Source: Sandaracinaceae bacterium (GTDB lineage: Bacteria > Myxococcota_A > Polyangia > Polyangiales > Sandaracinaceae). Taken from it: 64,000 nucleotides of DNA. Below are positions 8,379 to 21,170 of this stretch, piece by piece (the stretch's first letter is position 1; the number at the start of each line of letters is the position of its first letter). The notes beneath the pieces are model-generated. The model was not told the origin of the DNA and did not search any database. It saw nothing but the letters and a program-made list of their open reading frames with translations. The position numbers were made by a program, and so were the translations under genes. The DNA lies in the NCBI GenBank assembly GCA_044220955.1, contig JBGAQA010000019.1, forward strand, positions 1 through 64,000, in the 5' to 3' direction.

Positions 8379-8407
8379 TTGACGCGTGTACGGATGTCAC
8401 GTAACGC
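8379..8407 (+). promoter_or_regulatory. Putative sigma70-type promoter of lexA (TTGACG-N17-TAACGC)
   Basis: Near-consensus -35, 17-bp spacer and a weaker -10, about 70 bp before the ATG. Confidence 0.55.
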
Positions 8408-8416
8408 TCCCACTCA

Positions 8417-8434
8417 CCTGTTCATACGTACAGG
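8417..8434. promoter_or_regulatory. Putative LexA (SOS) box CCTGT-TCATACGT-ACAGG
   Basis: Palindrome between the putative -10 and the lexA start. Confidence 0.65.
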
Positions 8435-8478
8435 CGCCCACATCGGCAAACCCGCAGATCGCACGCACAGGGGAACTC

Positions 8479-9213
8479 ATGAACGGCCTCACGGATCGGC
8501 AGCGCATGGTGCTCGAGTACATCTGCGGCTCGATCGACGAGCGCGGCTACCCGCCGACGCTGCGAGAGATCGGCAACAAGCTCGGCATCCGCAGCACGAA
8601 CGGGGTGAACGATCACCTGCGGGCGCTCGAGCGGAAGGGCTACCTCACGCGCGAGGACATGAAGTCGCGCACGCTGCGGCCGACGGAAGCGACCCTGAAC
8701 CTCGTCGGGCACGGCTCGGCGAGCCGCGCCGTCGGGCTGAGGGGCATCAACGGCGGCAAGGCGAACGGGAGCGGCCACGCGCTCTCGCTCGGTGGGGCGG
8801 CGAACGACGCGGAGATGGTGGAGATCCCGATCCTCGGCCGCGTCGCGGCCGGCCCACTCGGCCTCACGAACGCGTTCGAGGCGCCCTCCGACACCGTGCG
8901 CATCGACCGCATGCTGCTCGGCCAGCGCGGCGGCGACGTGTTCGGGCTGCGGATCAAGGGCGACTCGATGATCGAGGCCGGCATCCACGACGGCGACTAC
9001 GTCTTCGTGCGCAAGGCGCCGACCGCGAACCGCGGCGCGATCGTGATCGCGATGGTCGGCGAGGAAGCCACTTGCAAGTACTTCTTCCCCGAGGCGAGCC
9101 ACGTGCGGCTCGAGCCGGCGAACACGGCGATGGCGCCGATCCTCGTGCCGCGCAGCGAGTGGCGCGAGACGAACATCCTCGGGATCGTCGTCGGGATCTA
9201 TCGCAGGCTCTGA
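8479..9213 (+). CDS. lexA: SOS repressor LexA
   Basis: Winged HTH (LTDRQ..GYPPTLREIG..HLRALERKGYL), cleavage site GRVAAG, catalytic GDSM and ATCK. Confidence 0.97.
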   Translation: MNGLTDRQRMVLEYICGSIDERGYPPTLREIGNKLGIRSTNGVNDHLRALERKGYLTREDMKSRTLRPTEATLNLVGHGSASRAVGLRGINGGKANGSGHALSLGGAANDAEMVEIPILGRVAAGPLGLTNAFEAPSDTVRIDRMLLGQRGGDVFGLRIKGDSMIEAGIHDGDYVFVRKAPTANRGAIVIAMVGEEATCKYFFPEASHVRLEPANTAMAPILVPRSEWRETNILGIVVGIYRRL

Positions 9214-9227
9214 GCTACCTTCGATCC

Positions 9228-10010
9228 ATGCGACGCCTCGCGTGGATCGTCGTGCTCGCCGGGTGCACCGCGCCCGTGCAGCACGCCCCCGCGCACGATG
9301 CCGACGTCGCGGACGCCCCGCCGCCGGACGGCTGGGCGGTGATCGGACACCCCGGGATCCTCCTCGGTGGCAGCGACGCCGGCGCCGGTGGCTGCGCGGC
9401 CCGCATCCTCGTCGTCTTCGACCGCTCGCTCAGCATGGAGTCGCCCTGGATCAGCGGCGGGACGAGCGCGCCCCGCTGGCAGCTCGCCGAGACCGCGCTC
9501 GCGAGCGCCGTCTCGCCACGCGCCTCGCAGCTGAGCGTCGGGGCGCTGCTGTTTCCGTCGAGCGATCCGGCGGCGAGCGCGTGCGCACCGGTCGACCCGA
9601 TCTCTCGGCAGATCCCGTTCGCGCCGGGCTCCGCGTTCCTCGCGGCGTGGGCCGCGACGTGGAGTCATCCGACGCTCTACGGCTCGACGCCGATCGACAC
9701 CGCGTTCGACGCGGCCGACGCCGCGCTCGCCGGAGCCGGCGCCGAGACGGCGGTCGTCCTGCTCACGGACGGCGAGCCCACGTGCAGCGGCGCCGTCGCC
9801 GCCGAGGCGCGCGCGGCCGCATGGCGCGCCCGGGGCATCCGTACGTTCGTGGTCGGTCTGCCTGGCTCGTCGGCCGGGGCTGCGTACCTCGCCGGCATCG
9901 CGAGCGCCGGCGGGACCGGCAGCGCCCTCGCGGTCGACGACCCCCGCGCGCTCGACGGCGCCCTGGCGACGATCGCGAGCGATCAGGTGCAGGGCCAGTG
10001 CGGCCCGTGA
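9228..10010 (+). CDS. VWA domain lipoprotein
   Basis: MRRLAWIVVLAGC lipobox; MIDAS VFDRSLSM, STP, LTDGEP. Confidence 0.85.
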   Translation: MRRLAWIVVLAGCTAPVQHAPAHDADVADAPPPDGWAVIGHPGILLGGSDAGAGGCAARILVVFDRSLSMESPWISGGTSAPRWQLAETALASAVSPRASQLSVGALLFPSSDPAASACAPVDPISRQIPFAPGSAFLAAWAATWSHPTLYGSTPIDTAFDAADAALAGAGAETAVVLLTDGEPTCSGAVAAEARAAAWRARGIRTFVVGLPGSSAGAAYLAGIASAGGTGSALAVDDPRALDGALATIASDQVQGQCGP

Positions 10011-10026
10011 GCGCGGCCACCGGTGA

Positions 10027-12189
10027 TCACGGGAACTGGACCTCGACCGGGAGCGACGCGGGCCCGCTCACGTCGTTCAGCTCTCCGTAGTAGTTGCCGC
10101 CCCAGCACCGCAGGGTGCCGTCGTCGAGGAGCGCGCACACGTGCGTCTGGGTGGCCACGACCTGCCGCGCGCCGCGGATGCCGGGGACGGGCGCGGCGCT
10201 CGCGCGGTCGGCGGTGGACCCGTCTCCGAGGATGTTGGTGCGACCCCAGCAGAGGACCCGCCCGTCGAGGGGATCGATGCCGCAGCCGCCGTCGAAGCAG
10301 ATCGAGAGGCCGACGAGCCCGTCTGCGCCCGCGACCCGACTCGGAGGCTGGCACAGGATGTCGTCGTGGGCCCAGTAGACCTCTCCGCTCACGAGCCGCG
10401 CGCAGGCGTCGGGGCCGTCCACCGCCAGCTCGGCGACCGGCCCGGGCATCACGGTCCACGGCACCGCGGTGGTCGTCGACGTCGCACCGCAGGGCCCGTC
10501 GGACGGTGGAAGCCCCCAGCTCACGATGTCGCCCGTCGCACGCAGCGCGAGCGCACCACCGCTCGCGACGCCGATCGAGACCGCGTCGTCGATCCCGACC
10601 ACTGGCACCGGCACCGACCGCGCGGTCGTCGTTCCGTCTCCCACCTCGCCGCGCTCGTTCGCGCCCCAGCAAGCGACCGCGCCGCCCGCGCGCAGGACGC
10701 ACACGTGCCTGTACCCGACGGCGACCGCCGTCGCGTCCGCGATGCCCACGACCTCGACGGGGCCGCCCTCGAGCGTCGTGCCGTCGCCCAGCGTCGGCGT
10801 CCGGATGGGCGGCGCGCTCGACGTGGACCGCCCGTCACCCCAGCAGCTCACGCGTCCGCCGGTGCGGACGCCGCAGGTCCAGAGCCAGTCGGGATCCGCC
10901 GCGACGAGATCGGCGAGCGGCACGTACTTCGGCGCTACTGGCCCATCGTAGTAGAGCGTTCCGTCCACCGCTCCGAAGTAGCCGTGGCCCGCGCACACCG
11001 CGCGACCCGACGCGCGCACCACGCACGAGATCCCGTAGCCCATCCCGATCGAGACCGCCGGATCGTCACAGACCCCGGCGTCACAGCCGCCCGCCCCGCA
11101 CGAGACGTCGCAGGCGCCGCAGCGGCGGGGGTCGTTCGCCAGGTTCGTCTCGCAGCCAGCGATCGCTGCGACGCAGTCGGTGTACCCGGCCGAGCACGCC
11201 CCGATCACGCAGGAGCCGGCGGTGCAGCTCACCGAGTCGGTGTGCACCGAGACCGCCTCGCACCAGGCCGTCGCGAGCGCACCGTCGGTCACGCCGTCGC
11301 AGTCGTCGTCGAGGCCGTCGCAGATCTCGTCTGCGCCCGGGTGCGCGGCGGCGTGGGCGTCGTCGCAGTCGTCGCCACCGCACACCGGCAGGGCGTGGCC
11401 GTCCCCGTCCGCATCCTCGATGGCACCGAGGCGTCCGTCGCAGTCGTCGTCGATCGCGTTGCACGTCTCGGTCATCCCCGGGTGTCGGTCGGCGTCCGCG
11501 TCGTCGCAGTCGTGCGGCCCGCGCCGGACCCATGCTCCGCTCGCGCAGGAGACCGGCGGAGGCGGCGTGGTGCCGCAGGCCGAGCTCGTGCGCGCGCTCG
11601 ACGGCGCGTAGCCATCGCGATCGCAGTCGGCGTAGACGGTGGAGTCGCCCCGGACGTCCGCGCGCGTGTCGTCGCAGTCGCCGGTGAGCCGCGCCCAGGA
11701 GCCTCCGCTGCAAGCGAGGGCCGGGAGCCGGGTCGGGCAGGCGTGGGTCGCGGGCGTGCCGCGCGGGCCGAGGCCGTCGCCGTCGCAGTCGGGGAAGAAG
11801 TCGAGCTCGTCGACGGCGGCGTGCGAGTCGTCGTCGCAGTCCGTGCCGCCGCAGCTCGCCGCGGTGTGGCCGTCGTGATCGTGGTCTGCGCAGCGGCACG
11901 TCCCCGTGGCGCGCTCGCACGTGGAGTCCGGAGGGCAGAGCGGCGCGCCGTCCGGGCGGCACCGATCGAGCGCGTCGACGGTGGGCGCGTCGAGGCGGAG
12001 CGCGTCCGCGGCCGGAGCGAGAGCGTCCCCGGGCGGAGCGTCGCGCACGCTTGCGTCGATCCTGCCTGCGTCGGTCCCGGCGTCGCCCGGCCCGACTTCG
12101 TCCGCGCACCCGCACGCGATCCACGCGAGGGCGACGCACGCACGGACCGAGGTACGCACCACGTCACGATCGACCGACGCCCGGAGCAC
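10027..12189 (-). CDS. Cys-rich lipoprotein with MopE-like putative metal-binding repeats and RCC1-like repeats
   Basis: DCDD..HPG..E.C..DDDCDG repeats; RCC1-type HVCVLRAGGAVACWGANERGEVGDG. Start uncertain. Confidence 0.85.
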   Translation of the reverse strand: MLRASVDRDVVRTSVRACVALAWIACGCADEVGPGDAGTDAGRIDASVRDAPPGDALAPAADALRLDAPTVDALDRCRPDGAPLCPPDSTCERATGTCRCADHDHDGHTAASCGGTDCDDDSHAAVDELDFFPDCDGDGLGPRGTPATHACPTRLPALACSGGSWARLTGDCDDTRADVRGDSTVYADCDRDGYAPSSARTSSACGTTPPPPVSCASGAWVRRGPHDCDDADADRHPGMTETCNAIDDDCDGRLGAIEDADGDGHALPVCGGDDCDDAHAAAHPGADEICDGLDDDCDGVTDGALATAWCEAVSVHTDSVSCTAGSCVIGACSAGYTDCVAAIAGCETNLANDPRRCGACDVSCGAGGCDAGVCDDPAVSIGMGYGISCVVRASGRAVCAGHGYFGAVDGTLYYDGPVAPKYVPLADLVAADPDWLWTCGVRTGGRVSCWGDGRSTSSAPPIRTPTLGDGTTLEGGPVEVVGIADATAVAVGYRHVCVLRAGGAVACWGANERGEVGDGTTTARSVPVPVVGIDDAVSIGVASGGALALRATGDIVSWGLPPSDGPCGATSTTTAVPWTVMPGPVAELAVDGPDACARLVSGEVYWAHDDILCQPPSRVAGADGLVGLSICFDGGCGIDPLDGRVLCWGRTNILGDGSTADRASAAPVPGIRGARQVVATQTHVCALLDDGTLRCWGGNYYGELNDVSGPASLPVEVQFP

Positions 12190-12219
12190 GTCAAGCGCGG
12201 GCGCGACCGGCCGCCGGCG

Positions 12220-12579
12220 CTACCTCGGCTTGCGCAGCGCGAGCGCGTGGTCCTTCTCGTCCGGATGCTCGTCGAGGAAGGCCTGGAACGACTCCTCGGT
12301 GATCTCGACCGCGACGTCGCCGTGGATCTTCGCCTGGCAGCCGAGCCGCGAGGTCGAGCGGACGTCGAACGCCTTGTCGAGGATGTCGAACTCCTCGTCC
12401 TCGATCTCGCTGGTGTTCGCGAAGCCCTCCACCACGTAGACGTGGCAGGTCGAGCACGCGCACACGGCGCCGCAGCGGTCGCCCTCGGGCGCGTGGATCT
12501 TCTTCGCGGCGGCGAGGATCGTGGTGCCGCTCTCGACGTCGACCTCCACGCCCTCCTTCAGGAAGCGAACGCGCGGCAT
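12220..12579 (-). CDS. fdx: ISC-type 2Fe-2S ferredoxin
   Basis: CGAVCACSTCHV...SRLGCQ; last gene of the isc operon. Confidence 0.93.
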   Translation of the reverse strand: MPRVRFLKEGVEVDVESGTTILAAAKKIHAPEGDRCGAVCACSTCHVYVVEGFANTSEIEDEEFDILDKAFDVRSTSRLGCQAKIHGDVAVEITEESFQAFLDEHPDEKDHALALRKPR

Positions 12580-14489
12580 CAGCCATCCTCGTGGGCGCGC
12601 TCGATGCCGCGCGCGTGCTCGGTGTCCTTCTCGATCTCGCCGACGCCCCTGCCCGCGAGCGCCCTCCGGATGCTCCGGTCCATCCTCAGGCCGGCGAAGT
12701 CGTGCGTCGCGGTGTCGAGCGCCTCGATGGCCGCGAGCAGGCGCCGCGGGTCCGTGCCGGCGTGGGCGCTGCGAACGGCGGCGATCGCGGCGTCCACGCG
12801 CGCTCGGTCGGGCGCGGCGAGCAGATCGCCGTCCTCGCGCAGCGCCTTCTCGGTGGCCATCAGCACGCGCTCGGCCTCGACGCGACGCTCCGCGAGCAGG
12901 CGCGCCTCCATGTCGGACTCGCCGTGGTCGTACGCGGAGAGCAGCATCTTCTCGATGTCCTCGTCCGAGAGGCCGTAGCTCGGCTTCACCTCGACTTCTT
13001 GCTCGATGCCCGTCGTGCGCTCGCGCGCCGTCACCTTGAGAAGTCCATCGGCGTCGACCGCGAAGCGGACCTCGAGGCGCGGCAAGCCGGCGGCCATCTT
13101 GGGGATGCCGCGCAGCGTGAAGCGCGCGAGCGAGCGACAGTCGGCGGCCAGCTCGCGCTCGCCCTGCACGACGTGCAGGTCGAAACCGGTCTGCCCGTCG
13201 GCGTAGGTCGTGAAGACCTGCGCGGCCTCGCACGGGATCGCGGTGTTGCGCGGGAGGATCCGCTCGACGACACCGCCCATCGACTCGACGCCGAGCGAGA
13301 GGGGGAGCACGTCGAGCAGGAGCACGTCGTCGTTGCGGCCCTCCCCGCTCAGCAGATCCGCCTGGATGGCCGCGCCGAGGGCGACGACGAGGTCGGGGTC
13401 GACGGAGGCGAGCGGGGGGCGGCCGAACGTCCGCTCGACGAAGGCCCGGACGGCGGGGACGCGCGTCGCGCCGCCGACGAGGATGACGCCGTCGAGCGGC
13501 AGCGACGCGGGTGCGCTGGGATCCATCCCGGCGTCTCGCAGCGCGCGGCGGCACGCCACGCCGGTGCGCTCGAGGAGCGGGGCGATCATCGCGTCGAGCT
13601 CCTCGCGGGTGAGCGTGAGCCGCGCCTCGCGGCCCGCGTGCCCGAGCTCCGTCTCGACCCGCGCGGCTTCGGTGAGCGCATGCTTGATCTGGCGCGCGGC
13701 GCCGAGCGCGTAGCGGATGGTCCCCGGATCCGGATCCGCGGCGCCGAGCGCGTCGAGCACCCGCAGGGCGATGGCGCGATCCATGTCGTCGCCGCCGAGC
13801 TGGCTGTCGCCGCCCGTCGAGCGCACCTGGAAGACCCCGTCGTCGAGGTCGAGGACCGTGACGTCGAAGGTGCCCCCGCCGAGGTCGTACACCACGAAGC
13901 GACCGTTCTTCTTCGCGCCGAGCCCGTACGCGAGCGCCGCGGCGGTCGGCTCGTTCAGCAGGCGCAGCACGGTGAGCCCGGCGAGCTTCGCCGCGTCCTT
14001 GGTCGCCTGTCGCTGCGCGTCGTCGAAGTACGCCGGGACGGTGATCACGGCGCCGCCGATCGGACCGAGCTCGTCCTGCGCGTTGTCGGCGAGCTCGCGC
14101 AGGATGGTCGCGCTCACCTCGACCGGGGTGACGACGCGGCCGCCTGCGACCTCGAGCCTCACGACCGGTCCTTCCGTGGTGGCGAAGCGGTACGAGCCGA
14201 GCCGCCGCGTCTCCGGGTCGTCCGCGCCGCGCCCCATCAAGCGCTTCACGCTCAGGATGGTGTCGTGAGGGTGCTCGACCGCCCGCTCGAGGGCGTGGCG
14301 CCCGACGGTGGTCGCGCCTTCCTTCGTGTAGTGCACGACCGAGGGCACCAGCGCGAGGTCGTCGCAGTCGCGGATCACCACGGGCTCGCCGGTCGGCGCG
14401 ACGTAGGCGACGACGCTGTTGGTCGTGCCGAGGTCGATCCCGATGGCCTTCGGCTTCGCGGCCGGATCATGTATCTGCAACAGGCCCAT
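12579..14489 (-). CDS. hscA: Fe-S assembly chaperone HscA (Hsp70)
   Basis: [33 protein letters not shown]; operon context. Confidence 0.96.
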
Positions 14490-15000
14490 GGACGTCTTCC
14501 TCGGCCAGCGCGACCTCGTCGAGGAAGCGGCGGTAGTAGCGCATCTTGCCGAGCTCGCCCTCGGCGCGATCGAGGTCGCCGTCGCGATCGAGCGCCTCGC
14601 CGAGGACGGCGCGCGAGCGCGCCTGCGCAGCGGCCACGCCGGACGCGAGGGCGCGAACGCGCTCGAGCGCGCCCTCGGCCCGCGCCTCCGCGAGCGCCTC
14701 GCGCAGCTCCATGACCTCCGTCAGGAACGCCGGGTCGGCCGGCATGCCGGCCTCGCGCGGTTCTCGTCCGCGCAGGCGCAGCAGCGCCATCGCGCGGCTG
14801 ACCTCGTCTCGGAGCACGCGGTAGGCCTCGTTCACCGTCACCGCGCGGGAGAGCGACGCCCGGCGCTCGGCGGGCGTGCCCTTCGAGTGCTTGTCGGGGT
14901 GGAGCGCGCGCTGGAGATCGCGCACCCTCGCCTCGAGCGCGGGCAGCTCGAGCGCGTACTGCGCGGGCAGCCCGAGCACGTCGAAGGGGCTCTCGATCAT
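14467..15000 (-). CDS. hscB: Co-chaperone HscB
   Basis: J-domain with [16 protein letters not shown]. Confidence 0.93.
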
Positions 15001-15008
15001 GGCCGGGC

Positions 15009-15392
15009 TCAGATCGCGAACGACTCCCCGCAGCCGCAGCCCTTCTTCTCGTTCGGGTTCCTGAACTTGAAGCCGTGGCTCATGAGCTTGACCTCGTAGT
15101 CGAGCACCGTGCCGCGCAGGTAGACGAGCGACTTCGGATCGACGACGACCTTGACCCCGTCGAACTCGAACACGTGGTCGCGCTCGCGGATCTTGTCGGC
15201 GAACTCGATGACGTAGGACGCGCCCGAGCAGCCGCCGCCGCGCACGCCGAGGCGGAGCGCAGCCGTCGGCGTCCCGCGCCGATCGATCGCCTTCTTCGCC
15301 ATCTCGACGGCCTTCGGCGTCAGCTCGATGCCGGGCGGCGTCGGGCTCGGGACCTCGGTCGGCTGGGTCTCGTGGCTCGTCACGGCGTCCAT
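15009..15392 (-). CDS. iscA: Fe-S assembly A-type carrier IscA
   Basis: GGGCSG and CGCGESF motifs. Confidence 0.95.
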   Translation of the reverse strand: MDAVTSHETQPTEVPSPTPPGIELTPKAVEMAKKAIDRRGTPTAALRLGVRGGGCSGASYVIEFADKIRERDHVFEFDGVKVVVDPKSLVYLRGTVLDYEVKLMSHGFKFRNPNEKKGCGCGESFAI

Positions 15393-15399
15393 CTCGGCC

Positions 15400-15810
15400 T
15401 CACGTCCCCGCGGCAGCCGCCTTCTTGGCTGCCTGCTTCTTGCGGTAGTCCTCGATCGCGCTCTTGATCGCGTCCTCGGCGAGGACCGAACAGTGGATCT
15501 TCACGGGCGGGAGGTTCAGCTCCTCCACGATCTGCGTGTTCTTGATGGTCATCGCCTGCTCGACCGTCTTGCCCTTGACCCACTCTGTCGCGAGCGAGCT
15601 GGACGCGATGGCGCTGCCGCAACCGAAGGTCTTGAACTTCGCGTCCTCGATCACGCCCGTCTCGGGGTTCACGCGCAGCTGCAGCTGCATCACGTCGCCG
15701 CAGGCGGGCGCGCCGACCAGACCGGTCCCCACCGTGGGATCCTCCTTGTCGAGGCGCCCCACGTTCCGCGGGTGCTCGTAGTGATCGATGACTTTGTCGG
15801 AGTAGGCCAT
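15400..15810 (-). CDS. iscU: Fe-S scaffold IscU
   Basis: MAYSDKVIDHY, GAPACGDVM, GCGSAIAS, LPPVKIHC. Confidence 0.98.
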   Translation of the reverse strand: MAYSDKVIDHYEHPRNVGRLDKEDPTVGTGLVGAPACGDVMQLQLRVNPETGVIEDAKFKTFGCGSAIASSSLATEWVKGKTVEQAMTIKNTQIVEELNLPPVKIHCSVLAEDAIKSAIEDYRKKQAAKKAAAAGT

Positions 15811-15828
15811 GACGTCCTTCTTCTGTGC

Positions 15829-17070
15829 TCAGTGGCTGGCCCACTGGATGGTCTTGTAGTCGACGCCGTCCTTGTGCATGTCGTAGAGCGGCGAGAGCTC
15901 GCGCAGCCGGCGCACCTCGCGGATCACGATCTCCGCGACGTAGTCGACCTCCTCGTCGGTGTTGAAGCGGCCGAGGCCGAAGCGGATCGACGAGTGCGCC
16001 AGCTCGCTGTCCACGCCGAGGGCGCGCAGGACGTAGCTCGGCTCGAGGCTCGCGCTCGTGCACGCGCTGCCCGAGCTGACCGCGACGTCCTTGATGCCCA
16101 TCATCATCGCCTCGCCCTCGACGAAGGCGAACGAGACGTTGAGGTTGCCGGGAAGGCGACCGCCACCTGGCACGTCGCCGTCGTCGGCGCCGTTGAGGAA
16201 GACCTCGTCGAGCGCCGCGAAGAGCTTGCCCCGCAGCCGCTCGCGCAGCCGATACGCGTGCGCGACGTCCTTCTCCATCTCCGTCGCGGCGATCGCCGCG
16301 GCCTTCCCCAGGCCGACGATCCCCGGCACGTTCAGCGTCCCCGAGCGCATGCCGGACTCGTGCCCGCCGCCGTCGATCTCGGGCGTGATCCGCACGCGCG
16401 GCCTCGTGCGCCGCACGTAGAGCGCGCCCACGCCCTTGGGCCCGTACATCTTGTGCGCCGAGATCGACGCGAGGTCGACGTTCATCTCGTCGACGAGGAA
16501 GCGCATCCGGCCGATGCCCTGCACCGCATCGCAGTGGAGCAGGACACCCTTCTCGCGTGTGACCTTCCCGATCTCGGCGATGGGGTGGACCGTGCCGATC
16601 TCGTTGTTGCCGAGCATCAGGGAGACGAGGATCGTCTTGTCCGTGATCGCCCGCCTCACGTCGTCGGGCGTCACGCGGCCCTTGGTGTCGACGTCGAGAT
16701 AGGTGACGGCGAAGCCCTCGCGCTCGAGGCGCTTGCAGGTGTCGAGCACGGCCTTGTGCTCGGTCTTCGCGGTGATGATGTGGTTGCCGCGGTCCTTGTA
16801 CTGGTGCGCGACGCCCTTGATCGCGAGGTTGTCGCTCTCGGTCGCGCCCGACGTGAAGACGATCTCCTTCTCGGAGTGCGCGCCGATGAGGTTCTTCAGG
16901 CGCTCGCGCGCCTCGTCGACCGCCTCCTCCGCGACCCAGCCGAAGTGGTGATTGCGGCTCGCCGCGTTGCCGAACTTCTGCGTGAAGTACGGCAGCATCG
17001 CGTCGAGCACGCGCGGATCGACCGGCGTGGTCGCGTGGTTGTCCATGTAGATCGGGAGCGAGAGCGTCAT
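15829..17070 (-). CDS. iscS: Cysteine desulfurase IscS
   Basis: [10 protein letters not shown] (PLP Lys), SSGSACTS, C-terminal LSPLYDM..IQW. Confidence 0.98.
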
Positions 17071-17627
17071 CGAGCGGCCTTTTCGGTGGCTTTCTCGGAA
17101 GGGGGAACGGTCACGCCGGCGACCATCAGCGGCGCGTCTTCGGGCTCACACTCGTGGCGGTCGCAGGCGGTACATGCGTGGACGGTGCGCACCGGCTCGC
17201 AGGTGTTGCACGTCTCGAGGTACTCGAGGCTCGCGCGCAGCTCGGTCTCGAGCGCGCGCAGACGCTCGATCTGCGTCCGCGTCTCCTTCAGCTTCTCGCG
17301 ATAGAGCTCGGCCAGGCGCGTCATCGCATCAGGAGCGCTCGAGCCGCCGTTCCAACCCGCGAGCAGCTCGCGAATCTCCGGGAGCGAGAGCCCCGCGTCC
17401 TGCAGGCGGGCGATCCACTCGACGCGCGTGACCGCGTCGCTGCGGTAGCGCCGGTAGCCGCCCTTGCTGCGATCGGCGGGCTCGAGCAAGCCCAGCTCCT
17501 CGTAGAGGTGCAGCGCCCGCACGGTCTTGCCGGTGCGCCGCGCCAGCTCGCCGACCAGCAGCGTCCCCTCGGCTCGCAGCAGCGAGCCCGTGGAGAGAGG
17601 AAACAAGCGCGTGCTGACGTCCGACAT
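17067..17627 (-). CDS. MerR-family transcriptional regulator with a Cys-rich C-terminus
   Basis: [36 protein letters not shown]; coiled coil; CNTC-x8-CTAC-x4-C; stop overlaps the iscS start. Confidence 0.92.
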
Positions 17628-17641
17628 CGTCTCGGCCCCGT

Positions 17642-17663
17642 ACCCTTACGCACGCGTGAGGGT
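17642..17663. promoter_or_regulatory. MerR-like operator palindrome ACCCTTACGC-AC-GCGTGAGGGT
   Basis: 9/10 inverted repeat 14 bp upstream of the regulator ATG; TTGCCC lies just upstream on the minus strand. Confidence 0.65.
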
Positions 17664-17789
17664 GAGGGCAAGTCGTTTTCTAGAACCGTCGCGGGCCTCG
17701 TCAACCGGTCCGCCGCCGCCCCGCCGCCACCCACGCCAGCGCTCGTCGATATCCCGTGCGAAATCGCGTGTCCCGGTCCGGTACGCATC

Positions 17790-20084
17790 GTGGTCGCGGC
17801 CCACGGAGTGCTCGCCGGGATTGCAGCTGGGATGCTCGCGGGGCTCGTGGCCGGCGGCTTCGCGGGGGGCGGCGCGCCCGTCCTGGCGCTGATCCCGCTC
17901 GCGGCGGGGACCCTCGTGTTCGTCGTCGGCGCTCGGGTCCGCCGGCCACGAGCGTGGGTCACCGTCGCGCTGATGTTCGCCGCGGCGGCGGGCGGCACGG
18001 CGCTCGCGCCCGCGACGGAGCACCCAGGGCGCGGGGGCACGCGCGTGATCGCCGGGACCATCGAGCGCTGCGACGCGGGCGGATGCACCGTCCGCGTGGA
18101 CGCCCTGGACGGCACGCCGGTGCGGACCCGCGCGCGGCTTCACGGGCTCACCGGCGCACCGGGCGACCGGGTGACGTCGACGGCGGACCTGCGCCCGCGC
18201 GCCCGCTTCCGGAACCCGAGCCCGCACCCGGACTGGCCGAGCGTCGAGCCGATCGCGTGGGCGGGCCGCGTGCACGAGAGCACCACCCTGCGCCAGCCCG
18301 CGAGCGCCGGGCGCCGCGCGATCGAGGCGCTGCGCGCGCGCATCCGCGCCGGGATCGAGCGCACGCTCGAGCCCCCGACGCGCGGCCTGGTGCTCGCGCT
18401 CGTGCTCGGAGACGAGGCCGACGTCGACGGCGCGTCCGCGGCGAGCGTGCGGGCGGCCGGGCTGACGCACGTGCTGGCCGTGTCCGGCATGCACGTGACG
18501 CTCGTCGTCGGCGCGCTGCTCCATGCACTGCTGCGCCTGCTGCGGCGGCCGGCGATCGCCGCGTACGTCGACCCGACCCGCATCGCGCACGGCCTCGCCG
18601 CACCGCTCGCGCTCGTCTACGCCGAGATCGCCGGGGGCTCGCCGTCCGCGTACCGGGCGGCGACGACGGCTGCCATCTCGTGGTGGCTGCGGGCCGCGGG
18701 CCGACGTCCCGACGCCATCGGGACCAGCGCCCTGGCCGCGCTCGTGTTCGTCGCGGTCGATCCGGCGAGCGCGCTGCGGCCGGCCTTCGTCCTCTCGATC
18801 GCCGCGACCGCGGCGGTCGTCGAGATGCCCGCCGAGCTGACGCTCGAGACGCTCGCGCGCGGGAGCACGCGCGCGTCCGTCGCGACGGCGCCACTCGTGC
18901 TCTGGTGCTTCGAGGGTGTGCCGCTCGTCGCGCTGGCGGCGAACGTGCTGCTGCTGCCGATCGTGGCGGCGCTGGTGCTCCCGCTCGCGACCCTGCACGC
19001 GCTGCTCGGCGCGATCGACCCGGACCTCGCCAGCCCGAGCGCGTTCGTGCTGGACGGGGTGTGCCGGGGGTTCGTCGGTGCGTGCGACGCGCTCGGAACG
19101 ATCGACGCCGGGCGTGGACTGCCGCCCCTCGACGTCGCGCAGGGGCTGGTCCTCACGGCCGCGGCGACGGCGCTGCTCGTCGTCCGCGGCGCGCGGCTGC
19201 GGCTCGCTACCGTCGCGATCGCCCTGGTCGCGCTGGCGGGAGCCGAGGCGAGCCTGCGGACGCGGGAGCTGCCACGGGGCGAGCTCCGGCTCACTTTCCT
19301 CGACGTCGGACAGGGCGACGCGGCCCTGGTGGATCTCCCCGACGGCTCGCTGATGGTGGTGGACGCCGGCGGCGCGTTCCAGGGCGGCGCCGACCCCGGA
19401 GCGCGCGTCCTCGTGCCGCTCTTGCGCGCGCGGCGGCGGGCGCGGATCGATCGGCTCGTCGTCACGCACCCGCACCCGGATCACTACGGCGGGGTCGCCG
19501 CGCTGGCCGCGCGCTTTCCGATCGACGAGGTCTGGGACAGCGGGCAGGCGCTCGAAGAGGACCCGACCGGCGCGTGGGCGCGCGCGCTCGGTGGCCTCGG
19601 GCGGCGTGCGCGCGTCGAAGATCCGCGCACGCTCTGCGACAGACCCGTCGTGCGGGGGGGCGCGCGCCTCGAGCTGCTCTGGCCGTGCCCCGCGTTCGAC
19701 CCCGGCTGGGACGCGAACGACAACTCGATCGTTCTGAGGATCACCTACGGCACGCGCTCGTTCTTGCTGATGGGGGACGCCGAGGCGCACGCCGAGTCGG
19801 CGCTGCTCGCGCGAGGCCTCCGCGGGCCCGTGGACGTGCTCAAGCTCGGGCACCATGGCTCGCACACCTCGAGCACGGACGCCTTCGTGGCCGCCGTGGC
19901 CCCGCGCCTGGCCATCGTGAGCGCGGGCGTCGGCAACCGCTTCGGCCACCCGCACGAGGACGTGATGGATCGGCTGGCGGCCCGGGGCATCGACGTCCTG
20001 CGCACCGATCTCGACGGCGGGATCGTGGTGCACACCGACGGGCACGCGCTCGGCGCCGAGGCGTGGAGCGGCGCGCGCCGATGA
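17790..20084 (+). CDS. comEC: DNA internalization competence protein ComEC/Rec2
   Basis: GLTHVLAVSGMHV; metallo-beta-lactamase domain FLDVGQGDA, THPHPDHYGG, HHGS, NRFGHPH. Start approximate. Confidence 0.93.
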   Translation: MVAAHGVLAGIAAGMLAGLVAGGFAGGGAPVLALIPLAAGTLVFVVGARVRRPRAWVTVALMFAAAAGGTALAPATEHPGRGGTRVIAGTIERCDAGGCTVRVDALDGTPVRTRARLHGLTGAPGDRVTSTADLRPRARFRNPSPHPDWPSVEPIAWAGRVHESTTLRQPASAGRRAIEALRARIRAGIERTLEPPTRGLVLALVLGDEADVDGASAASVRAAGLTHVLAVSGMHVTLVVGALLHALLRLLRRPAIAAYVDPTRIAHGLAAPLALVYAEIAGGSPSAYRAATTAAISWWLRAAGRRPDAIGTSALAALVFVAVDPASALRPAFVLSIAATAAVVEMPAELTLETLARGSTRASVATAPLVLWCFEGVPLVALAANVLLLPIVAALVLPLATLHALLGAIDPDLASPSAFVLDGVCRGFVGACDALGTIDAGRGLPPLDVAQGLVLTAAATALLVVRGARLRLATVAIALVALAGAEASLRTRELPRGELRLTFLDVGQGDAALVDLPDGSLMVVDAGGAFQGGADPGARVLVPLLRARRRARIDRLVVTHPHPDHYGGVAALAARFPIDEVWDSGQALEEDPTGAWARALGGLGRRARVEDPRTLCDRPVVRGGARLELLWPCPAFDPGWDANDNSIVLRITYGTRSFLLMGDAEAHAESALLARGLRGPVDVLKLGHHGSHTSSTDAFVAAVAPRLAIVSAGVGNRFGHPHEDVMDRLAARGIDVLRTDLDGGIVVHTDGHALGAEAWSGARR

Positions 20085-20087
20085 GCG

Positions 20088-21170
20088 TCACTCGAGCGCG
20101 CTCTTCTCCACCTGCGACTCGAGGTACGCCTTGATCTTGCCCTGCAGGCGCTTCTCGAGCTGGCGGACGCGCTCGCGTGACACGCCGAACTGCTCGCCGA
20201 GCTCCTGCAGCGTCTTGGGCTCCTCGCTCATCAGGCGCTCCTTGAAGATGACCTCTTCCTTGCCCTTCAGCGTCTTGCCGAACTCGTGGATCTTCTCGCT
20301 GAGCATCTCGCTGAGCTCGCCCTCGGCGAGCTGCACGTCCGCGCCGGCGTCGCCGCTCGGCATCGACTCGATGCGCGAGGTCGGCTTGCCTTCCGACTGC
20401 CCGATCGGCGCGTCGAGCGAGACCTCGCCGGTGGAGAGGCGGCGGTCCATGTGGACGACCTCCTCCGTGGGGACGTCGAGGTTCTTGGCGATCAGCTCCG
20501 GCGTCGGGTCGATCCCCATCGCGGAGAGGCGCGCCTTCTCCTTCTTGAGGTTGAAGAAGAGCTTCCGCTGCGCCTGGGTCGTGCCGACCTTCACCAGGCG
20601 CCAGTTGTTGAGGATGAAGCGCAGGATGTACGCGCGGATCCACCACGCCGCGTAGCTCGAGAGCTTCACGCCGCGGTACGGGTCGTACTTCTTCACGGCC
20701 TGCATCAGGCCGATGTTCCCCTCCTGGACGAGGTCGAGGATGTTCCGGTACGCGCGCTTGTAGTCGAACGCGATCTTCACCACGAGGCGCAGGTTCGAAG
20801 TGACGAGCTTCTTGGCAGCGTCGACGTCGCCGGTGCTCAGGTACTTCACCGCGAGCTCGTGCGTCTCTTCGGGCGTCAGCAGCGAGTAGCGCTGCACGTC
20901 ACGCATGTAGGCCTGCAGCGGATCGGTCGTCGCGAGCGGCCCGGGCGACCCGCGCGGCACGAGCGCCGCGACCTTCTCGGGGGCCAGCTCCGCCTCGAAC
21001 TCGAGCTCACCTTCGGCGGGGCCGGCCCCGACCACCTCGCCGTCGAGCGGCTCGTCGTCCGCGCTCCGCTCGCGCGGCACCTCGCTGGCGTCGACGACCT
21101 CGCCCTCGAGAGCGTCGTCGGGCTCGCGCGCGGGCTCGGCCGACCTCGGTGCTTTCTTCTTGCCAGCCAT
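20088..21170 (-). CDS. rpoH: RNA polymerase sigma factor, sigma32/RpoH type
   Basis: [19 protein letters not shown], RpoH box QRKLFFNL, region 4 [10 protein letters not shown]. Confidence 0.9.

Follow-up and report, generated by a model that had tools for sequence, protein, structure and literature searches.

The question raised by this locus is which protein controls iron-sulfur (Fe-S) cluster biogenesis in a bacterium whose isc operon is headed by a gene of the MerR family instead of iscR. The operon lies at positions 12220-17627 of a 64,000-nucleotide stretch of contig JBGAQA010000019.1 (the window) from a Sandaracinaceae bacterium of the Myxococcota. Reviews, in the accessible parts of their text, name the Rrf2 proteins IscR and RisR together with SufR as dedicated regulators of Fe-S biogenesis and place no MerR protein in that role. 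Our comparative analysis has shown that the merR gene, four cysteines of its product, a palindromic operator and Fe-S operons travel together, excluding Rrf2. We assign a probability of roughly 0.56 to the reading that this four-Cys MerR protein binds the palindrome and represses the isc operon when its cysteines hold an Fe-S cluster.

The gene order on the minus strand was found to be merR-iscS-iscU-iscA-hscB-hscA-fdx, and the merR stop codon overlaps the iscS start codon in the sequence ATGA (17070-17067), as the first-pass annotation of this DNA had described. Among the matches listed, only some relatives have this overlap and most have a short gap. The products of iscS, iscU, hscB and hscA passed the NCBIfam cut-offs for their names; the iscA product is above the cut-off only for the A-type-carrier subfamily model, and the fdx product scores below the cut-off of its nearest model, fdx_isc. 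The neighbourhood check that the annotation had proposed was found to favour it. Among the 201 loci under study there were 196 distinct ones, of which 186 had at least 250 nucleotides downstream; the next gene is iscS in 179 of these 186, and the seven exceptions are non-isc paralogs that were deliberately fetched. Moreover, an even sample of the phylum contained the family (E<=1e-32) in 46 of 201 genomes, and in 45 of the 46 it stands before iscS (33 adjacencies read from fetched DNA, three from previously gathered loci and nine from coordinates). The spread was assessed within Myxococcota only; cluster look-ups and a distant-member profile search gave no organism names outside this phylum, and no relatives were found among viral contigs, or among plasmids at E<=1e-20. 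As a separate observation, a 1.8 Mb single-contig Polyangiaceae genome (G128, locus L184; 96% complete) has kept merR, the operator and the whole isc operon.

The 186-residue protein scored above the Pfam gathering scores of PF13411 (MerR_1), PF00376 (MerR) and PF09278 (MerR-DNA-bind), and its domain matches include no Rrf2 family. It reached the cut-off of no NCBIfam MerR subfamily, the CueR, ZntR, CadR and MerR models included. The best of these models was SoxR (TIGR01950, 61.1 vs 116.9 bits), and membership of SoxR was rejected on this score and on the motif, which is C-x2-C-x-C-x5-C in the aligned E. coli SoxR and thus differs, as had been noted earlier. The C-terminus reads CNTC-x8-CTAC-x4-C with His150 and His158, in agreement with the first-pass annotation, and its label of a five-cysteine regulator did not hold. 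A word-index search returned 1156 homologs. Among the best 120, each of the four cysteines C140, C143, C152 and C155 is conserved in 118, C160 in 92, His158 in 109 and His150 in 28; the cysteine alignment that the annotation had suggested came out in favour of four Cys conserved across Myxococcota. When 1.84 billion representatives were searched with a profile, 199 clusters scored E<=1e-30, and in the best 150 of these the four columns hold Cys in 129/129, 128/128, 122/124 and 121/124 rows, with no later His or Cys column at 80% or more. Because only these four Cys columns stay conserved in distant representatives, the putative ligand set is CxxC-x8-CxxC. A five-Cys or Cys/His set was rejected, as C160 and His150 are poorly conserved and no further column reaches 80%.

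AlphaFold2 predicted the winged helix-turn-helix with confidence, together with a helix of about 40 residues (98-138) of high predicted local distance difference test score (pLDDT) that leads into the Cys module. All top Foldseek matches are of the MerR family, with the fold nearest to SoxR, CueR and CadR, and the closest solved relatives by profile or fold are MerR, CadR, Mta, TipA, PbrR, CueR and SoxR; the ESM Atlas returned generic MerR clusters only. In the alignment with E. coli SoxR, CueR and ZntR, the first Cys column alone is in common, C140 being aligned with the first Cys of SoxR, and the helix-5 Cys of divalent-metal MerRs is not present. A tree was computed from 65 rows, namely one locus in four from L104-L183, the complete set L184-L223, this gene, its paralog and three E. 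coli proteins. It placed the 54 isc-linked rows on one side of a branch (96/97), clustering by family; the E. coli rows form long branches and the deeper order is unsure. Many members are labelled 'copper efflux regulator' in the source databases, and such copper-efflux or mercury regulator labels are in error for many of them.

The regions upstream of merR share a 24-base-pair (bp) imperfect palindrome. A matrix trained on loci L002-L100, with this window's own site left out, gave a single site of at least 10 bits in the 7.5 million positions of this genome, at 17641-17664. Of the isc-linked loci whose upstream DNA was long enough, 147 of 151 contain the palindrome, 37 of them in two copies, as against none of 344 control coding windows; part of these loci had trained the matrix. 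With one mismatch allowed, a pattern search gave a single site, located before merR, in G007 and G023 (both near-complete Sandaracinaceae genomes) and in G197, one unrelated site in G172 and none in G217, and five genomes without the MerR family gave no site. At two mismatches the control matches equalled the real ones in most genomes, and only matrix-rescored sites were used. Because protein and palindrome are gained and lost together, we are highly confident in the prediction that the palindrome is bound by this protein as its operator. Operator variants with other half-site spacing (18-bp, 25-bp) were also observed, at L006, L037, L046, L071, L077, L068 and L078.

The predicted -35 hexamer TTGACG is followed in the window by a 16-bp spacer, the predicted -10 hexamer TAGAAA, 12 bp and then the operator. 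Across 191 sites of the family, TTGAC occurs 33-50 bp ahead of the operator in 114 pairings, as against 14 occurrences in 134,163 coding bases, and positions 24-25 after the -35 start are T in 72/114 and A in 97/114, which gives a -10 box at a 17-bp spacer (17 bp in 40/61, 16 bp in 12/61). In the pairing counts, where one site may pair twice with TTGAC, the operator lies at or after the start in 114, reaches from the -10 over the start in 23 and lies in the spacer or over the -10 in 30; 30 of the 191 sites lack a TTGAC within 50 bp. In canonical MerR activators the operator has to lie inside a 19-20 bp spacer (PMC11672702; this and the other papers are cited from the accessible parts of their text), and the E. 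coli soxS promoter has a 19-bp spacer with the dyad inside. This register was found in one of 191 sites (locus L142), and with the 16-17-bp spacers it led us to reject the canonical activator layout. Since only this one site has the activator position, repression of the operon by the protein appears quite likely, and the site's varied offsets of 2 to 47 bp at a normal promoter fit steric repression.

The exchange with Rrf2 regulators and the SUF system provides a further line of evidence. This genome (88% complete) has one iscU, and no SufB/D was found. The earlier observation that the window lacks an Rrf2 gene extends to the whole contig; three Rrf2-like matches lie on other contigs, and the genome search proposed at first pass found no Cys-triad Rrf2 at this completeness. 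The single full Rrf2 was rejected as an IscR, as it lacks the triad and precedes a cysteine-synthase-like gene. An Rrf2 profile gave no match in 220 merR loci (1.87 Mb). In Sandaracinaceae, MerR is found in 20 of 32 genomes (19 with iscU; 19 and 18 of 31 if the unpublished G259 is excluded), sufB in 10 others and both in none, the remaining two incomplete genomes having neither. In all nine readable suf loci of this family an Rrf2 gene comes first and there is no operator. Within the same order, 15 genomes of the phylum sample without MerR have no iscU and 14 of the 15 have sufB; within the same class, sufB occurs in one of 24 MerR-bearing genomes. The merR gene is absent from genomes without ISC. 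A true iscU in the absence of MerR occurs in 21 genomes, and 15 isc loci were fetched from this group: a Cys-triad Rrf2 precedes iscS in seven, no regulator is found there in eight, and none has the operator. The premise of IscR as the normal leader of isc operons hence overstates the case in this phylum, as isc of M. xanthus is also without IscR (PMC9973013). MerR and Rrf2 types together at one operon were not seen among the operons examined.

Two observations stand beside this exchange. SUF-only Polyangiales (L251, L252, L256, L301-L309) keep iscA by rrf2-suf, divergent or upstream, and L251, L252 and L256 also keep iscS there. The suf leader of G161 (L259) carries GGAC-N7-GTCC, the published RisR motif, and the Rrf2 gene of G161 sits at isc (L238); it is possible, judging from the motif, that trans control runs there in the direction opposite to that in M. 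xanthus.

The operator was also found away from merR. In family f46, most of which lacks iscU, sufB occurs in 11 of 28 genomes and all 11 encode a member of the MerR family. Among the 10 suf leaders that could be read, eight have an operator with a score of 18-35 bits at a distance of 108-256 bp ahead of the sufB match; of the remaining two, one scores 12.8 and one has no site. Within 1.5 kb of these leaders there is neither an Rrf2 nor a MerR gene, and their sites are outside the training set of the matrix. The operator before regulator-less suf operons points to control in trans. Five of these genomes have kept merR-iscS-iscA-(hscB)-hscA and lack iscU. Such iscU-less isc operons, where suf carries the operator (L190, L191, L194, L198 and L208), may reflect a hybrid ISC/SUF pathway. 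At the f46 loci L210-L214, L269 and L277, a sister clade of the regulator stands directly before an extracytoplasmic function (ECF) sigma-70 gene, and an operator-like site is often present; G139 has the operator ahead of the sigma gene even though merR is absent there.

A mechanism can be proposed from these results. Gene order, four Cys and palindrome are conserved jointly across many Myxococcota families, and the palindrome would serve as the site of the protein. The bound dimer would block RNA polymerase, because the site overlies the -10 or the start of a promoter whose spacer is about 17 bp, at many offsets. In the last and weakest step, the ISC machinery under its control would load the dimer with a [2Fe-2S] or [4Fe-4S] cluster and the loaded form would repress, whereas iron shortage or oxidative damage would give the apo-protein and derepression. 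This logic follows the analogy with IscR and with RisR, in which cluster loss lifts repression (PMC9973013). Provided that the protein binds the operator and represses, a cluster on the four Cys is probable. As ISC is the sole scaffold system found, the MerR protein would be the main Fe-S homeostasis switch of this genome.

Several points weigh against the reading of a cluster-loaded repressor. The count of 179 among 186 loci comes mostly from the best 80 of 225 and the best 80 of 538 matches by similarity to the query and is biased to close kin; the genomes compared are kin as well, and their counts are counts of genomes, not of independent switches. All cases of suf control in trans come from the single family f46, where the operator was also found before a second family copy with an ECF sigma gene, or before the sigma gene alone. 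G197 has MerR at isc, yet an Rrf2 gene leads its suf operon, which is without the operator, and the suf operon of G237 has neither an Rrf2 gene nor the operator. A strict sigma-70 consensus scan of 12000-18200 called no promoter, so the promoter was deduced from the family alignment. Whether or not ligand is bound, canonical MerR proteins remain on their DNA (PMC11672702), and ligand-dependent release from DNA is an assumption of our proposal. The Cys module has a pLDDT of about 50-55 in two AlphaFold2 models, one of them with a 100-sequence input. The weakest assignment, made by analogy, is that the four-Cys site would hold an Fe-S cluster rather than a metal ion. A pair of CxxC motifs is also the usual arrangement of zinc or rubredoxin-type single-iron sites, and CxxC-x8-CxxC resembles rubredoxin and zinc-knuckle pairs. 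Operator and repression could thus be the same with one metal bound by the four Cys, either Fe(II) reporting iron supply in a Fur-like logic or Zn(II) reporting zinc stress on Fe-S assembly. The nearest solved relatives by profile (MerR, CadR, PbrR, CueR) are mononuclear metal sensors, and a paralog in this genome (C266:20420-20880, minus strand), divergent from rpsU with no operator and no Fe-S neighbour, carries the same motif; because of this paralog, the Cys motif alone is not specific to Fe-S control. The absence of the helix-5 Cys speaks against a divalent-metal sensor, as does the alternation with Cys-triad Rrf2 at the same operons. Moreover, isc or suf genes, a paralog or an ECF sigma gene follow the strongest sites in the genomes scanned, and no site was seen ahead of iron-uptake or metal-efflux genes. 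We regard sensing of a metal ion as unlikely on balance.

The two vicinal CxxC pairs would also suit a thiol-redox switch, in which disulfides or the oxidative release of a structural Zn free the repressor from DNA and induce ISC for cluster repair. Redox-sensing MerRs with Cys pairs exist, e.g. NmlR (PMC11672702), and the module is predicted to be poorly ordered without a cofactor. This explanation is improbable in our view, as none of the genomes scanned showed an operator ahead of a peroxide or thiol-repair gene, and a regulon confined to Fe-S genes suits product feedback better. A SoxR-like activator, permanently bound and untwisting the promoter so that isc is switched on upon cluster oxidation, would agree with a fold closest to SoxR, CueR and CadR and with the canonical register at L142. 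It is very unlikely, since that register is unique among the 191 sites, the offsets are widely spread, the spacers are shorter than in soxS and the site in the window lies entirely downstream of the predicted -10. Least of all do we expect the regulator to be a passenger that controls only itself, or the palindrome to serve the divergent comEC, with a merely historical link to isc. The comEC gene is indeed divergent here, about 130 bp from the site, and in many relatives; the palindrome is kept where the upstream gene differs, it precedes suf operons far from merR, and merR is missing from genomes without ISC. A riboswitch or small RNA explanation was ruled out, because an Rfam search of 10000-21000 gave no match.

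The features of the locus are collected in the following table.

Coordinates of the merR-isc operon and its predicted control elements in the window
Feature	Position	Strand	Remark
24-bp imperfect palindrome, predicted operator, consensus AACCCTYACGYRYRCGTRAGGGTT	17641..17664		about +6 to +29 of the inferred transcript start
Predicted -35 hexamer TTGACG, merR-isc promoter	17699..17704	-	from family alignment
Predicted -10 hexamer TAGAAA	17677..17682	-	16-bp spacer here; 17 bp in most relatives
MerR-family regulator, 186 amino acids	17067..17627	-	variable N-tail, winged helix-turn-helix, dimerisation helix, C-terminal CxxC-x8-CxxC module, PxLVAG tail
Codons of the four near-invariant Cys, C140-x2-C143-x8-C152-x2-C155	17163..17210	-	
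Codon of the variable fifth Cys, C160	17148-17150	-	
iscS, cysteine desulfurase	15829..17070	-	ATG overlapping merR stop
iscU, scaffold	15400..15810	-	one copy in genome
iscA, A-type carrier	15009..15392	-	
hscB, co-chaperone	14467..15000	-	
hscA, chaperone	12579..14489	-	
fdx, 2Fe-2S ferredoxin	12220..12579	-	last gene of the operon; no iscX and no tRNA after it

Some neighbouring features may be mentioned. The comEC/rec2 gene (about 17790-20084, plus strand, start uncertain) is divergent from merR and is the same neighbour in many relatives; an rpoH-like sigma gene (20088-21170, minus strand) is convergent with it. On the other side, lexA (8386-9213, plus strand), above its NCBIfam cut-off, lies 3 kb from the operon end. 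Directly after fdx and on the same strand, 10027-12189 encodes a 720-amino-acid Cys/Asp-rich protein with MopE-type and RCC1 repeats, which was not seen within the operon elsewhere. A tRNA search of the window found none, whereas M. xanthus isc has a tRNA-Leu at its end. The HscB encoded at L208:5122-5757 has an N-terminal CxxC-x9-CxxC that is absent from the HscB of the window. Weak matches of the rpsU-paralog kind were seen across the order, SUF-only genomes included. Among RNA data, 15 runs covered small shares of the stretch only. A sludge metatranscriptome holds an exact 251-nucleotide contig across the merR-iscS junction (17041-17291), from which strand or a single transcript is not readable and which was not used as evidence; for the neighbouring 15 kb the same set gave only listed pieces of at most 35 nucleotides.

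On these comparative tests, the interpretation of the first-pass annotation is supported at the level of sequence. Our study adds to it the predicted operator and promoter at 17641-17704, the repressor position, the exclusion of Rrf2 and the operator before suf operons in trans. If the proposal is true, much of the myxobacterial group, Sandaracinaceae and Polyangiaceae included, has another solution for this control; these bacteria are a source of natural products needing Fe-S enzymes. A cofactor-sensing MerR would then function in repression, and SoxR would lose its place as the sole Fe-S type of MerR. We see about even chances for a wider proposal, in which a MerR-fold repressor with a CxxC-x8-CxxC-bound cluster switching its DNA binding, without promoter untwisting, would be a third Fe-S control scaffold beside Rrf2 and SufR. 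It would be the main Fe-S regulator of most Polyangia, would swap with Rrf2 at ISC/SUF switches, and in one lineage would run an isc remnant, suf and an ECF sigma gene from one operator. The claim is directly testable: a small protein and an operator known to base resolution are involved, and the cultured species Sandaracinus amylolyticus encodes a member (WP_236604908.1 / AKF07563.1).

Full-text literature searches, with most subscription papers outside their coverage, gave no description of this family, which is undescribed as far as searched. As far as their accessible text goes, PMC8593673 gives IscR and SufR as dedicated Fe-S regulators and mentions no MerR, PMC9973013 likewise mentions none, and SoxR is the only Fe-S type among the MerR subtypes of PMC11672702. 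SoxR shares with our protein the winged helix-turn-helix and coiled coil, about 30% identity and four Cys right after the dimer helix, and carries its [2Fe-2S] on four Cys at the same place of the MerR scaffold (PMC11672702). The spacing C-x2-C-x8-C-x2-C differs from that of SoxR, and the operator lies outside any 19-bp spacer with Fe-S assembly as the target, not soxS or efflux. The metal-sensing MerR, CueR, ZntR, CadR and PbrR are the closest solved sequences and folds, whereas they have another Cys layout; the present family adjoins Fe-S genes, not efflux pumps, and lacks the activator promoter layout. MliR of Bizionia (PMC9478572), a MerR-like iron regulator without effector domain, also joins the MerR superfamily to iron homeostasis, but it is Cys-less and, in the accessible text, not linked to an isc operon. 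SufR of cyanobacteria and actinobacteria (PMC8593673) is likewise a non-Rrf2 scaffold acting as holo-repressor and autoregulator of an Fe-S operon; it belongs to another DNA-binding family, has C-X12-C-X13-C-X14-C and controls suf only. IscR of E. coli ([2Fe-2S]) heads its isc operon and represses it by feedback, as predicted here, whereas it has an Rrf2 domain and Cys3His ligands in place of four Cys, and the MerR operator occurs once in the genome, with no sign of a broad regulon. RisR of M. xanthus (PMC9973013), from the same phylum and likely with the same job, represses isc and suf in the Fe-S-loaded state from a palindrome over the -10 or start and can act in trans on a second operon; it differs in its Rrf2 fold, three Cys, operator GAC-N7-GTC and location at suf. 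Hence, the regulator of this locus is likely to work like the IscR and RisR repressors, yet by its sequence it is a member of neither Rrf2 nor SoxR.

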